Origin: Escherichia coli
GTDB lineage: Bacteria > Pseudomonadota > Gammaproteobacteria > Enterobacterales > Enterobacteriaceae
DNA length: 64,000 nucleotides
NCBI RefSeq assembly: GCF_003334785.1
Contig: NZ_QOWV01000012.1
Direction: 5' to 3' (one strand)
The position numbers were made by a program, and so were the translations under genes. Of this stretch, positions 58,925 through 64,000 are shown piece after piece. The first letter of the stretch is position 1. Each line of letters starts with the position of its first letter. The notes beneath the pieces are model-generated. The model had not been told where the DNA came from and searched no databases. It was given only the letters and a program-made list of their open reading frames with translations.

Positions 58925-59045
58925 ATTTCAGACCATTAAGAAAATTTTATCCAAAGCCAGTCCAGCGGACTGGCTTTTGCGGTTTTAGCGAATAATAAAT
59001 TGCGTTACTTTGTCATTCTTTCACAACAAAAACAGGAAGGCAGAG

Positions 59046-60119
59046 GTGGGGCAGCGAATACCTGTAACGCTTGGTAATATTGCGCCGTTGTCGCTAAGGC
59101 CGTTCCAGCCTGGACGAATAGCTCTGGTGTGCGAAGGCGGCGGACAGCGTGGAATTTTCACGGCTGGCGTGCTGGATGAGTTTATGCGCGCGCAGTTTAA
59201 TCCTTTCGATCTTTATCTCGGCACATCTGCCGGGGCGCAGAACCTCTCGGCGTTTATCTGTAATCAGCCCGGTTACGCGCGCAAAGTCATCATGCGCTAT
59301 ACCACAAAACGCGAATTTTTCGATCCATTGCGCTTTGTCCGTGGAGGAAATCTTATCGATCTCGACTGGCTGGTGGAGGCCACCGCAAGCCAGATGCCGT
59401 TGCAAATGGATACCGCCGCGCGGTTGTTTGACAGCGGCAAATCGTTTTATATGTGCGCCTGTCGTCAGGATGACTACGCGCCTAATTACTTTTTACCAAC
59501 CAAACAAAACTGGCTGGATGTGATTCGCGCCTCCAGTGCGATACCTGGCTTTTATCGTAGCGGAGTGTCGCTGGAAGGCATTAACTACCTGGATGGCGGG
59601 ATCAGTGATGCGATTCCGGTTAAAGAGGCGGCAAGGCAGGGCGCTAAAACGTTGGTCGTCATCCGCACTGTGCCGTCACAAATGTACTACACGCCGCAGT
59701 GGTTCAAACGCATGGAACGCTGGCTGGGTGACAGTAGCCTGCAGCCGCTGGTCAATCTGGTGCAGCATCATGAAACCAGCTATCGTGACATTCAGCAATT
59801 TATTGAGAAACCACCGGGCAAGCTGCGGATATTCGAAATTTATCCACCGAAACCATTACATAGTATCGCGCTTGGCAGTCGGATTCCGGCGCTGCGTGAA
59901 GACTATAAACTTGGGCGTTTATGCGGTCGTTATTTCCTCGCCACGGTTGGCAAGCTATTAACTGAAAAAGCGCCGCTTACCCGCCATCTGGTGCCAGTGG
60001 TGACGCCGGAATCGATCGTTATTCCGCCTGCGCCAGTCGCCAACGATACGCTGGTTGCCGAAGTGAGCGATGCTCCGCAGGCGAACGACCCGACATTTAA
60101 CAATGAGGATCTGGCTTGA
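59046..60119 (+). CDS. yjjU: Patatin-like phospholipase family protein YjjU
   Basis: ORF 59010-60119; probable GTG start at 59046 (AGGAAGG Shine-Dalgarno upstream) gives 357 aa; GGGQRG oxyanion motif and GTSAG serine lipase motif. Confidence 0.75.
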   Translation: MGQRIPVTLGNIAPLSLRPFQPGRIALVCEGGGQRGIFTAGVLDEFMRAQFNPFDLYLGTSAGAQNLSAFICNQPGYARKVIMRYTTKREFFDPLRFVRGGNLIDLDWLVEATASQMPLQMDTAARLFDSGKSFYMCACRQDDYAPNYFLPTKQNWLDVIRASSAIPGFYRSGVSLEGINYLDGGISDAIPVKEAARQGAKTLVVIRTVPSQMYYTPQWFKRMERWLGDSSLQPLVNLVQHHETSYRDIQQFIEKPPGKLRIFEIYPPKPLHSIALGSRIPALREDYKLGRLCGRYFLATVGKLLTEKAPLTRHLVPVVTPESIVIPPAPVANDTLVAEVSDAPQANDPTFNNEDLA

Positions 60120-60898
60120 TTTGCCGTTTTATCGATACCCACTGCCATTTTGATTTCCCGCCGTTTAGTGGCGATGAAGAGGCCAGCCTGCAACGCGCGG
60201 CACAAGCGGGCGTAGGCAAGATCATTGTTCCGGCGACAGAGGCGGAAAATTTTGCCCGCGTGCAGGCGTTAGCGGAAAAATATCAACCGCTGTATGCCGC
60301 ATTGGGGTTGCATCCGGGGATGTTGGAAAAACATAGCGATGTGTCTCTTGATCAGCTACAGCAGGCGCTGGAAAGGCGTCCGGCGAAGGTGGTGGCGGTG
60401 GGGGAGATCGGTCTGGATCTCTTCGGCGACGATCCGCAATTTGAGAGGCAGCAGTGGTTACTCGACGAACAACTGAAACTGGCGAAACTCTACGATCTGC
60501 CGGTGATCCTGCATTCACGGCGCACACACGACAAACTGGCGATGCATCTTAAACGCCACGATTTGCCGCGTGCTGGTGTTGTCCACGGATTTTCTGGCAG
60601 CCAGCAACAGGCTGAACGGTTTGTACAGCTGGGCTACAAAATCGGCGTAGGCGGTACTATCACCTATCCACGCGCCAGTAAAACCCGCGATGTCATCGCA
60701 AAATTACCGCTGGCATCGTTGTTGCTGGAAACCGACGCGCCGGATATGCCGCTCAACGGCTTTCAGGGGCAGCCTAACCGACCGGAACAGGCTGTGCGGG
60801 TGTTTGACGTGCTTTGCGAGTTGCGCCCGGAACCAGAAGATGAGATTGCCGAAGTGTTGCTTAATAATACGTATGCGTTGTTTAGCGTTAGTGGGTAG
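60116..60898 (+). CDS. yjjV: TatD-family metal-dependent deoxyribonuclease YjjV
   Basis: 260 aa, MICRFIDTHCHFDFPPF (TatD HxH motif); ATGA overlap with yjjU. Confidence 0.85.
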   Translation: MICRFIDTHCHFDFPPFSGDEEASLQRAAQAGVGKIIVPATEAENFARVQALAEKYQPLYAALGLHPGMLEKHSDVSLDQLQQALERRPAKVVAVGEIGLDLFGDDPQFERQQWLLDEQLKLAKLYDLPVILHSRRTHDKLAMHLKRHDLPRAGVVHGFSGSQQQAERFVQLGYKIGVGGTITYPRASKTRDVIAKLPLASLLLETDAPDMPLNGFQGQPNRPEQAVRVFDVLCELRPEPEDEIAEVLLNNTYALFSVSG

Positions 60899-60902
60899 TT
60901 TA

Positions 60903-61414
<512 letters not shown>

Positions 61415-61415
<1 letters not shown>

Positions 61416-62278
61416 CACAAATACAGCGCCGGAAATATCAACCGGCCCACCCCGCGCACCTTTAATGCATCAGCCAACGGCTCAACGTCTTCCGGCGTGG
61501 CGCTCGCCCAGCTTTGCGCCTCGCCATACACGCCGTGGGCATGAAACGCGTTCAGGCGTACCGGAACATCGCCAAGTCCCTTGATAAACGCCGCCAGTTC
61601 TTCGATGTGTTGCAAATAATCCACCTGGCCAGGGATTACCAGCAAACGCAGTTCCGCCAGCTTGCCGCGCTCTGCCAGCAAACAGATGCTGCGCTTAATC
61701 TGCTGATTATCGCGTCCGGTTAATTGTTGATGACATTCGCTACCCCATGCTTTGAGATCGAGCATTGCGCCGTCACACACCGGGAGTAATTTTTCCCAGC
61801 CGGTTTCGCTCAACATGCCGTTACTGTCCACCAGACAGGTGAGATGGCGCAGTTGCGGATCGTTTTTGATAGCAGTAAACAGCGCCACTACAAACGGCAG
61901 TTGGGTCGTGGCTTCGCCGCCGCTTACCGTTATCCCTTCAATAAACAGCACCGCTTTGCGGACATGGCTAAGCACTTCGTCCACGCTCATGGATTGCGCC
62001 ATCGGCGTGGCATGTTGCGGACACCTCTTCAGGCAGGTATCACACTGCTCGCAGACCGCAGCGTTCCACACCACTTTGCCGTCAACAATCTGCAACGCCT
62101 GATGCGGACACTGTGGCACGCACTCTCCGCAATGATTACAGCGCCCCATCGTCCACGGATTGTGACAGTTTTTGCAGCGCAGATTGCAGCCCTGCAAAAA
62201 CAGAGCCAGACGACTGCCTGGCCCGTCAACGCAGGAGAAGGGGATAATCTTACTGACTAAAGCGCATCTGCTGTTCAT
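61415..62278 (-). CDS. yjjW: Glycyl-radical enzyme activating protein (radical SAM) YjjW
   Basis: 287 aa with Cys-rich radical-SAM/ferredoxin-like motifs ([30 protein letters not shown]). Confidence 0.85.
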
Positions 62279-63800
62279 GGCTTATCACGCGCGGCTGGCG
62301 TTCCAGAATACGAGTGTTGCGTGCGGCTTCTTCGCCCAGCCAGGTGGTGTTGGTGCGTGAACCTTCGGCGCGATATTTTTCTAAATCCGACAAACGCACC
62401 ATATAACCGGTAACGCGAACCAGATCGTTACCGCTGACATTGGCGGTAAATTCACGCATTCCGGCTTTAAAGGCACCGAGGCAAAGCTGTACCAGCGCCT
62501 GCGGATTACGTTTGATGGTTTCGTCGAGCGTCAGAATGTCGCTGATGCCGGAATAATAATAAGCATGATGCGGGGCGACAGTTTGCAGATGGGTGATCGG
62601 ATCTGGCTCATCGCCATAGGGTAAACGCGCGCCCGGCGTGGTGCCGATATCGGAACTGATCCCCGACTGTGCGTGTAACATGGCGCGTTTTTGCCAGCCA
62701 TATTTCACGGGGGTATTGGCGACAAACTCCGCCAGTTGCGCGCTGATGCGATAACCCACTTCATTTGCGGCGGCTTCTTTACCGTAGCGCGCGGCAATCC
62801 CTTCTTTCTCACACAGCAAGTTAACCGCTTCCGCCAGCCCATACATGCCAAACATTGGCACAAAACGTTCAGGGTTAATCAGCCCTTCTTTCACCAGGAA
62901 GCTATTCTCAAAGAAGTGTGATTGTTGATAGAGGAATTCACACCGCGCATCGATGATGGCGATCTGCTGCTGGCAGTAGTGCGGTAGAGTGCGCGTAAAG
63001 AAGTCATCCAGCGATTCGCTGCGCTCGGCAATGGCTTTCAGGTTAAGGCGTACCAGCGTGCTGCCACCACCCGCCAGCGGCAGTGAGTTGTAACAGCTCA
63101 CAATCCCGTAGCCCCCTTTTGTGAAAATTTTATCATGCACCGGACCGTTGGCGATGTGCGGTTTGCTACATTCACAGATGTTCTTCGCCACTTCCAGCAG
63201 TAGGTCATCAGGGGTGATTTCAGGATCGTAGATAAAGGTCAGGTTCGGTGAAACCTGCTTCAACTCTGCGTCTGCACGTAAGATTGCACGGGTAATGGGC
63301 GAATCAGACGGGCCGATATTGGCGTGCATAAAGGCGTCTGGCAGGGTTCTGTCGAGGTAACGCCAGAAACGTTTTATTCGAATATCGATCTCGTCTTGTG
63401 TTAGAATTCTAACATACGGTTGCAACAACGCATCCAGTTGCCCCAGGTAGACCGGCATCGATGTGACCGACGGTACGTGGTGGTAAAGAATGGTCAGCAG
63501 AGAGAGTGCGTCATCAAGATCTTTCGCGCCTTCCAGCTCCAGCCATTCGGAACCGTTCGCCAGAAAACGGGCGTAATCGGGTAAGACATAGCGCGGTTTG
63601 TACGGCGCATGACCTTCAAACATATCGCAGATTACACCCTCATCCAGCGCACGGCGGGCTTCGGCAGGCAGCTGCGGATAAGGCAGATTGTTTTCTGCTT
63701 CAAGTGCCAGAAAATGGCGCTTCTGCTCCGGGCTAAGCACTGGGCTGGTGACAATTTGCTGGCAACGTTGTTGCAGTGCATTTTCATCAGAAGTGGGCAT
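62250..63800 (-). CDS. yjjI: Glycyl-radical-enzyme-like protein YjjI (DUF3029)
   Basis: 516 aa, [45 protein letters not shown]; 29-nt overlap with the yjjW start. Confidence 0.85.
63399..63414. promoter_or_regulatory. Perfect DeoR-operator palindrome TGTTAGAATTCTAACA (probably a distal deo operator) inside yjjI
   Basis: 16-bp perfect palindrome identical to the DeoR operator consensus; the deo operon begins just beyond the window end and is known to use operators extending into yjjI. Confidence 0.5.
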
Positions 63801-64000
63801 CTTCTTTTCCTTTTATGCCGAAGGTGATGCGCCATTGTAAGAAGTTTCGTGATGTTCACTTTGATCCTGATGCGTTTGCCACCACTGACGCATTCATTTG
63901 AAAGTGAATTATTTGAACCAGATCGCATTACAGTGATGCAAACTTGTAAGTAGATTTCCTTAATTGTGATGTATATCGAAGTGTGTTGCGGAGTAGATGT

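Follow-up and report, generated by a model that had tools for sequence, protein, structure and literature searches.

yjjI-yjjW of Escherichia coli: a very probable minimal glycyl radical enzyme and its activase, possibly serving nucleoside and pentose catabolism

Which reaction do the products of yjjI and yjjW bring about, two overlapping genes beside the deo operon of Escherichia coli? We analyzed the pair in a stretch of 64,000 nucleotides (the window; contig NZ_QOWV01000012.1 of assembly GCF_003334785.1), for which an earlier note made from the letters alone had described a resemblance to a minimal system of a glycyl radical enzyme (GRE) and its radical S-adenosylmethionine (SAM) activase, leaving the substrate blank. 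That no reaction has been assigned still holds, as the literature searched for yjjI, yjjW, DUF3029 and related names contains no paper assigning a reaction or function; the blank for the substrate can tentatively be narrowed, since gene context suggests nucleoside or pentose catabolism. YjjI-YjjW is one of the few E. coli GRE systems without a known reaction, belongs to the core genome and appears to be made only anaerobically, as in the gut; to our knowledge, every GRE with a solved reaction (choline, hydroxyproline, isethionate and others) has revealed gut-relevant chemistry. YjjI would have the smallest barrel of the superfamily, placed between the ribonucleotide reductases (RNR) and the enzymes resembling pyruvate formate-lyase (PFL), which makes its reaction relevant to the diversification of radical enzymes.

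We consider it very probable that yjjI and yjjW encode a genuine GRE and its activase. The two are the name-giving members of the curated families TIGR04040/PF11230 and TIGR04041, and YjjI scores 788.2 bits against TIGR04040 ('YjjI family glycine radical enzyme'; cut-off 498.3, profile positions 1-497) and 732 bits against Pfam PF11230. An alignment of 24 diverse homologs (29-90% identity) has 15 invariant columns, including R462 and G465 of the glycine loop R462-V-T-G465-Y, which is itself invariant in this set, and C236 of the loop S-C-Y-N; among a wider set of 113 sequences the glycine loop is conserved to at least 95%, as are C236 and its neighbors S235, Y237 and N238. The AlphaFold model of YjjI is confident (predicted local distance difference test, pLDDT, 91.5; predicted template modeling score, pTM, 0.91). 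In it, strands 460-462 and 467-469 form a beta-hairpin with RVTGY at its tip, and strands 231-234 and 238-241 one with C236 at its tip. The fold by which members of the GRE superfamily are recognized, a 10-stranded alpha/beta barrel whose two finger loops face each other, is thereby predicted for YjjI. The earlier note had left it to structure prediction whether YjjI carries a glycyl-radical loop or fold; with motif and fold both present, the GRE reading stands, and the resemblance to a GRE plus activase can now be anchored in the TIGR04040 and TIGR04041 scores and in the invariant R462, G465 and C236.

At the level of sequence comparison, a search of PDB sequences with YjjI alone gave no matches, while the family profile weakly reached PFL, YbiW and NrdD. 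In the profile alignment YGVVSCYN lies over YAIACCVS of PFL, pairing C236 with C419 and S235 with C418, and LVRVTGY lies over TIRVSGY, which contains the glycine of RVSG734Y. Alignment of YjjI with E. coli PflB by hhalign (probability 68%, E 4.7e-5) begins at residue 90 and reproduces the C236/C419 and RVTGY pairings; the corresponding alignment with E. coli NrdD reached a probability of 88.7% (E 2.6e-6). Structurally, the YjjI model matches all GREs with NrdD at the top, as also found with Foldseek. Judging from the model, the solved fold nearest to YjjI would be that of NrdD rather than that of PflB, the enzyme appearing slightly closer to NrdD.

Comparison with the known GRE classes leads to a composite picture. 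Class III RNR NrdD shares with YjjI the 10-stranded barrel, the cysteine finger loop and the C-terminal RVxGY glycine loop, and like YjjI it is anaerobic and, as proposed for YjjI, tied to ribosyl metabolism. Unlike NrdD, YjjI is about 200 residues shorter and lacks the ATP-cone, the zinc-binding CxxC pairs and the second active-site cysteine: C440 is the sole cysteine in residues 330-516, no CxxC zinc site precedes the glycine loop, and no cysteine besides C236 is conserved in the family, with the position of C175 of E. coli NrdD falling at P-R70-Y71 of YjjI by hhalign. Searches of YjjI with NrdD models gave no NCBIfam match, no ATP-cone and a Pfam NRDD match that is not significant (E 0.61). 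For want of ATP-cone, zinc cysteines, a significant NrdD model and a second conserved cysteine, an assignment of YjjI as ribonucleotide reductase was rejected. PflB/TdcE with PflA resemble the pair in that the glycine motif aligns, C419 corresponds to C236, the RxNL motif at R435 aligns, and both enzymes are FNR-controlled. Yet, unlike PFL, YjjI has a serine (S235, conserved to at least 95%) at the position of the essential C418, matches no NCBIfam model of the PFL family and, as the earlier note had remarked, is much shorter than PflB-type enzymes (516 versus 760 residues). An assignment as PFL was discarded on account of the missing Cys-Cys pair in the finger loop and the serine in place of C418. 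The GRE eliminases, comprising the glycerol and propanediol dehydratases, CutC, HypD, IslA and the E. coli orphans PflD and YbiW, carry out redox-neutral elimination that requires one cysteine, like the chemistry we prefer for YjjI. Their cysteine loop has the motif G-C-x-E, with the catalytic glutamate two residues after the cysteine. The YjjI loop, in contrast, reads S-C-Y-N with N238 conserved to at least 95%, and YjjI is devoid of the N-terminal helical region of about 250 residues found in eliminases; the deviating loop also argued against counting YjjI as a typical eliminase. As signatures of NrdD, PFL and eliminases are all missing, the activase is of the eliminase type and the fold is slightly nearer to NrdD, YjjI is a separate, minimal lineage of the GRE superfamily.

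YjjW scores 398 bits against TIGR04041 (cut-off 250), followed by the HypD activase model (141 bits), the PflC/PflE-type model TIGR02494 (136 bits, under its cut-off of 174) and PflA, with NrdG far lower; PflC/PflE-type eliminase activases are the class closest to YjjW after its own family. Pfam finds Radical_SAM and Fer4 domains, with Fer4_9/Fer4_7 at residues 46-90. The several CxxC clusters mentioned in the earlier note resolve into the radical-SAM motif CX3CX2C (CNLRCKNC, with C31, C35 and C38) and two ferredoxin-type CX2CX2CX3C motifs at residues 47-57 and 76-86. In addition, VDGPGSR at residues 17-23 conforms to the DGxGxR motif and VSGGEAT at residues 118-124 contains the SAM-binding GGE. 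Unlike PflA, YjjW has auxiliary clusters, and unlike NrdG it has a two-cluster ferredoxin insert. By its profile scores, which like those of YjjI are far beyond chance, and by its motifs, YjjW would thus be a GRE activase of the ferredoxin-insert type that is used by PFL-like eliminases.

The open reading frame (ORF) coordinates bear out the gene lengths and the 29-nt overlap given in the earlier note. The same overlap occurs in about 70 Enterobacteriaceae loci, and clostridial homologs overlap by 7-8 nt; from the gene arrangement, the overlap implies co-transcription and probably coupled translation. Several E. coli chromosomes match a 3.1-kb stretch covering the pair at 100% identity, and of 5426 complete genomes 5423 contain this stretch, with the genes annotated as yjjI and yjjW. 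The YjjI family is small, with 542 clusters at 50% identity (E ≤0.001, many of them fragments) among 1.84 billion representatives, and its members come from Enterobacterales, Vibrio, Photobacterium, Shewanella, Psychromonas, Moritella, many Clostridia and Atribacteria. Pairing of GRE and activase is kept in all well-covered loci from Gammaproteobacteria, Clostridia and Atribacteria; the activase gene adjoins yjjI in 76 of the 91 loci surveyed, many of the remainder being cut by contig ends.

What the enzyme acts on was approached through gene neighborhoods. In E. coli the pair is flanked by yjjV on one side and by the divergent deoCABD operon on the other, and in about 70 Enterobacteriaceae species both genes are likewise transcribed divergently from deoCABD, with yjjV at the far side. 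A profile search of genome contigs recovered Enterobacterales only, so function and synteny are not separable there. Metagenome contigs were scanned with a profile of distant YjjI members, yielding 80 loci whose neighboring ORFs were all clustered. When non-enterobacterial loci were grouped into lineages at 70% YjjI identity, a gene of nucleoside catabolism or uptake was found on the same strand within 5.5 kb of the pair in 10 of 33 lineages, or in 9 of 29 when only lineages with flanks of 4 kb or more are counted. The genes concerned and their orders are listed in Table 1; nucleoside hydrolases, ribokinase and an RbsR-like repressor accompany the pair in loci L145 and L151. As at least three different gene orders recur, the nucleoside linkage has been repeatedly rebuilt or kept. 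The non-enterobacterial homologs score 537-804 bits against TIGR04040, above the cut-off, and are 40-44% identical to E. coli YjjI; since such distant homologs pass the cut-off and keep the same residues, the same function appears likely across the family. A network study placed YjjI in a module of nucleotide transport and deoxyribonucleoside degradation (PMC2672614). The operon evidence narrows the candidate substrates to a short list of nucleosides, ribose, deoxyribose and their phosphates. Whereas yjjI-yjjW is a system already named and functionally orphan, its operon link to nucleoside genes is new here. Neighbors of 135, 222 and 339 residues, YfmF/YfmH, FtsK, a haloacid dehalogenase (HAD) phosphatase, Spx and endonuclease III were rejected as partners, being mutually unrelated or a matter of lineage-specific synteny.

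Several observations weigh against a nucleoside role, and with these in mind we hold a link of yjjI-yjjW to nucleoside or pentose catabolism only tentatively, at somewhat less than even confidence. Proteus retains the pair without a deo operon beside it, so that the deo adjacency of enterobacteria, taken alone, could be inherited synteny. About two thirds of the lineages have the pair as a stand-alone cassette amid unrelated genes, as in clostridial isolates, a gammaproteobacterial metagenome-assembled genome (MAG), Vibrio and Shewanella; Vibrio, Shewanella and a related MAG show nothing next to it but a LysR regulator gene in convergent orientation. For random neighborhoods the background of nucleoside genes was put at about 1-3%, a rough estimate and not a measurement. 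Bmp proteins are not all nucleoside-specific, and the best NCBIfam match of the substrate-binding protein (SBP) next to the pair, to a 'putative B6' model, is weak. Co-expression in E. coli and Salmonella points to nitrate or nitrogen metabolism (PMC3228777), and the literature searched reports neither glycyl radical nor substrate nor phenotype for YjjI.

How the pair might work can be outlined from established GRE chemistry. YjjW would bind SAM on the [4Fe-4S] cluster of its CX3CX2C motif and receive electrons via the two ferredoxin-type clusters; cleavage of SAM would yield a 5'-deoxyadenosyl radical, which would abstract a hydrogen from YjjI at Gly465. Once per turnover, the glycyl radical stored there would oxidize Cys236 in the facing loop to a thiyl radical; this attacks the substrate, and as the cycle closes the radical returns to Gly465. 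Going by gene context, the most likely substrate would be the ribosyl part common to the linked pathways, be it a nucleoside, ribose or a pentose phosphate, and the strongly polar or charged residues conserved in YjjI (R70, D150, H159, N186, K213, R251, E305, H376, Q378, D384, R392) would fit a sugar or sugar phosphate. The reaction might then be a redox-neutral radical elimination or cleavage, similar to the first half-reaction of RNR. This weak inference follows from the conservation of just one cysteine, from the many conserved residues of acid/base or cationic character and from the resemblance of the barrel to that of RNR; without a second conserved cysteine, a reduction by YjjI is unlikely. 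That a ribosyl substrate undergoes elimination-type chemistry is, in our estimate, a rather doubtful proposition when both parts are taken together, and it is similarly doubtful that YjjI represents a new GRE reaction class in which a minimal RNR-like barrel performs a radical transformation on the pentose of a nucleoside or on a pentose phosphate. The most plausible form of such a class would be loss of a ribose hydroxyl as in the first RNR half-reaction, without the reductive step. If true, this would add a previously unrecognized step of nucleoside catabolism for facultative and strict anaerobes. The wider reading, a functional two-gene GRE system that operates only anaerobically and serves nucleoside or pentose catabolism, is the one we favor, with slightly less than an even chance of being correct.

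Anaerobic expression of the pair has support in published data. Chromatin immunoprecipitation (ChIP) of FNR lists yjjI among the directly activated, FNR-bound operons (PMC3688515), and in Yersinia intermedia without oxygen transcripts of yjjI rose 4.3-fold and those of yjjW 2.1-fold (PMC3792023). Furthermore, narG and yjjI share a cluster in E. coli and Salmonella, and the yjjI product has been predicted to fold like NrdD (PMC3228777). A generic promoter scan upstream of yjjI gave no match; an FNR-type promoter emerged only when the 160 bp upstream of yjjI were aligned across 15 genera. A GGATCAA(A) half-site is kept in 14 of the 15 amid divergent flanks, and most of the genera have, at constant spacing from it, a -10-like hexamer (TACAAT, TACACT or a one-base variant). 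This spacing would put FNR near -41 and the transcription start near 63827, so the segment at 63861-63874 is a likely FNR site of the yjjI promoter. The predicted site agrees with the FNR ChIP result (PMC3688515), provided that the published peak coordinate is read in the older genome numbering. CRP site 2 of the divergent deoP2 promoter could possibly serve yjjI as a shared co-activator site; the FNR/CRP spacing at yjjI resembles the ansB arrangement. In the yjjI/deoC spacer, ChIP-seq gives a peak at the neighboring CRP site TGTGATGTATATCGAA (PMC4287617).

A further layer of deo control extends into yjjI itself. The perfect 16-bp palindrome TGTTAGAATTCTAACA, which we take to be DeoR operator O1 at deoP1, has a single exact match in the window, located in codons V130-T134 of yjjI, and 54 Enterobacteriaceae loci carry it unaltered and at an identical offset. 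The -10 hexamer of deoP1 falls within this operator. Operator O2, TGTTAGAATACTAACA, starts at 63997 at the very end of the window (63997-64000), 598 bp from O1. DeoR looping between the operators would enclose the yjjI promoter, and with deoP1 lying inside yjjI, its transcripts would run antisense through the first ~400 nt of the gene. Candidate regulators suggested by the locus are FNR, CRP, CytR and DeoR; if the proposed role is true, YjjI would in E. coli be wired into the deo regulon via FNR, the shared CRP site and a DeoR loop around its promoter. As separate observations, the codons of O1 for V-R-I-L-T include the rare AGA and CTA, and a 12/16 match occurs at 63120-63135, 279 bp further into yjjI, presumably the third operator OE, given its position. 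The sequence TGTGACCGACGGTACG at 63462-63477 inside yjjI, about 50 bp downstream of O1, is the reverse complement of an intragenic CRP site mapped by ChIP-seq in enterotoxigenic E. coli (ETEC) (PMC4287617).

Other explanations have to be weighed against a role in nucleoside or pentose catabolism. YjjI could be a PFL-like lyase of central fermentation acting on a small carboxylate, for example a 2-oxo acid, with its deo and transporter neighbors reflecting synteny or coincidence. The stand-alone cassette of most lineages is what one would expect for an enzyme of a ubiquitous metabolite, and activation of yjjI by FNR together with fermentation and respiration genes points the same way, as do the alignment of R251-x-N-L with R435-x-N-L of PFL, where R435 is the ligand of the pyruvate carboxylate, profile matches to PFL and YbiW that equal the NrdD match in quality, and the aldehyde dehydrogenase gene directly upstream in Shewanella. 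We nevertheless regard such a lyase as unlikely, if deserving of serious attention: YjjI has S-C where PFL requires the C418-C419 pair, no NCBIfam model of the PFL family matches, the R251-R435 pairing is off by one residue in hhalign, and chance hardly explains operonic nucleoside genes in 10 independent lineages and three gene orders. A different possibility accepts the uptake link as real and assigns to YjjI chemistry without ribose, on another cargo of the Bmp transporter or on the base, such as a nucleobase-derived ring or a modified nucleoside. Here it matters that the transporter is the commonest partner (SBP in 19 loci, 16 groups at 90% identity) rather than a sugar enzyme, that Bmp proteins bind varied ligands, one SBP being closest to the 'Lbp' structure (7x0r), a PDB code absent from the literature searched, and that one operon contains a YgeY-like M20 hydrolase. 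Nevertheless, ribokinase, DeoB and DeoC, which process pentoses, recur beside the pair, the sugar is the part that nucleosides share whereas their bases differ, and by established GRE chemistry aromatic bases are poor targets for hydrogen abstraction by a thiyl radical, all of which makes a base or other cargo improbable in our view.

A reductive role fares less well still. DeoC, which needs deoxyribose phosphate, is the immediate neighbor in E. coli and part of the operon in L175, and this would suit a cryptic reductase of the class III RNR type that makes deoxyribosyl compounds from ribonucleotides, ribonucleosides or ribose phosphate. With one conserved cysteine in YjjI, P-R70-Y71 where NrdD has its bottom-face cysteine (C175 in E. 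coli), neither an ATP-cone nor a CxxC zinc site before the glycine loop, a non-significant Pfam NRDD match (E 0.61) and an activase that is not NrdG-like, we judge such a reductase very improbable. E. coli nrdD mutants reportedly do not grow strictly anaerobically, so YjjI would be no substitute for NrdD. Finally, yjjI-yjjW might be a decaying or silent relic with no function in E. coli today, a notion to which the lack of phenotype reports in the literature searched, truncated YjjI variants of 402-476 residues in some E. coli records and deoP1 firing antisense through the 5' part of yjjI could lend some color. It is scarcely credible in view of a pair that is intact in 5423 of 5426 complete genomes, catalytic motifs that are all invariant across phyla, FNR binding with anaerobic induction, and conserved promoter elements.

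Table 1. Features of the yjjI-yjjW locus (window coordinates) and same-strand neighbors and gene orders of the pair in non-enterobacterial loci.
Feature	Position	Strand	Basis or remark
yjjI coding sequence	62250-63800	-	six-frame ORF list, 516 aa; YjjI-family GRE (predicted), essentially bare 10-stranded barrel
yjjW coding sequence	61415-62278	-	six-frame ORF list, 287 aa; predicted radical-SAM activase of YjjI, two-cluster ferredoxin insert type
yjjI/yjjW overlap, 29 nt	62250-62278	-	ORF coordinates and sequence; yjjI stop region and yjjW start
R462-V-T-G465-Y codons, glycyl-radical motif	62403-62417	-	translation, conservation, PFL alignment; G465 predicted radical site
S235-C236-Y237-N238 codons, cysteine finger loop	63087-63098	-	translation, conservation, PFL alignment; C236 predicted thiyl-radical residue
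YjjW C31-X3-C35-X2-C38 codons	62165-62188	-	sequence motif; predicted ligands of the SAM-cleaving [4Fe-4S] cluster
YjjW codons of two CX2CX2CX3C motifs	62021-62140	-	motifs and Fer4_9/Fer4_7; predicted auxiliary clusters
Candidate FNR site CGCATCAGGATCAA	63861-63874	-	7/10 consensus positions; ~-41 from predicted start
Candidate yjjI -10 hexamer TACAAT	63834-63839	-	predicted start near 63827, 27-nt leader, AAGGA ribosome-binding site
CRP site 2 of divergent deoP2	63913-63926		pattern scan and conservation; center ~92.5 bp upstream of predicted yjjI start
Presumed DeoR operator O1 at deoP1, TGTTAGAATTCTAACA	63399-63414		palindrome inside yjjI, encodes YVRILTQ
BIME/REP array, four 101-bp units	60910-61414		between convergent yjjV and yjjW
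Bmp/PnrA-type lipoprotein binding protein (SBP)	same-strand neighbor		Pfam Bmp 240 bits; T. pallidum PnrA (2fqw) 285 bits
Double ATP-binding cassette (ABC) ATPase and two permeases of SBP	same-strand neighbors		NCBIfam matches
Ribokinase	same-strand neighbor		335 bits, above cut-off
Nucleoside hydrolase	same-strand neighbor		318 bits
RbsR/PurR/CytR-like repressor	same-strand neighbor		NCBIfam match
DeoC, adenosine deaminase (Add), phosphopentomutase (DeoB)	same-strand neighbors		NCBIfam matches
DeoD	same-strand neighbor		BLASTP match to E. coli DeoD
Gene order in L175	SBP-YjjI-YjjW-ATPase-permease-permease-DeoC-Add-DeoB		all gaps ≤98 bp
Gene order in L170	DeoD-SBP-YjjI-YjjW
Gene order in L173	SBP-ATPase-permease-permease-YjjI-YjjW		last permease gene overlaps yjjI by 5 nt
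Gene order in L096, L104, L106	YjjI-YjjW-SBP-ATPase-permease-permease
Gene order in L093	RbsK-YjjW-YjjI
Gene order in L145	transporter, two hydrolases, repressor, YjjI-YjjW

Downstream of yjjW, the array of bacterial interspersed mosaic elements (BIME) that the earlier note had placed after the pair consists of units with 93-100% identity. Rfam finds four matches to RF02564 (naRNA4, derived from repetitive extragenic palindromic (REP) sequences) in it, at 74-84 bits and above the gathering score; within 60995-61376 this nucleoid-associated REP RNA model has four plus-strand matches and one on the minus strand. Across the array, yjjW converges with yjjU (patatin-like, a 369-aa ORF) and yjjV (TatD-like metal hydrolase, 260 aa), which occupy positions 59010-60898 of the window with a 4-nt overlap.

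Among public records, E. coli YjjI variants shortened to 402-476 residues occur, one of 452 residues on 176 contigs, and a single 574-residue product on a 2.9-kb contig joins PF11230 to a DeoC-type aldolase domain (PF01791), probably an artefact of assembly or annotation. In 11 metagenomic homolog loci (for example L143, 2633-4414 on the minus strand) an antisense open frame of about 540-590 codons spans the whole of yjjI, probably an effect of codon composition; a recurrent cluster of ~540-aa neighbor ORFs was ruled out as a partner, its members being these antisense ORFs. In Shewanella, the aldehyde dehydrogenase gene upstream of yjjI is on the same strand, and the LysR gene of Vibrio, Shewanella and the related MAG lies tail-to-tail after the activase gene, at 10466-11362 in L002, 10465-11601 in L176 and 10441-11451 in L177.

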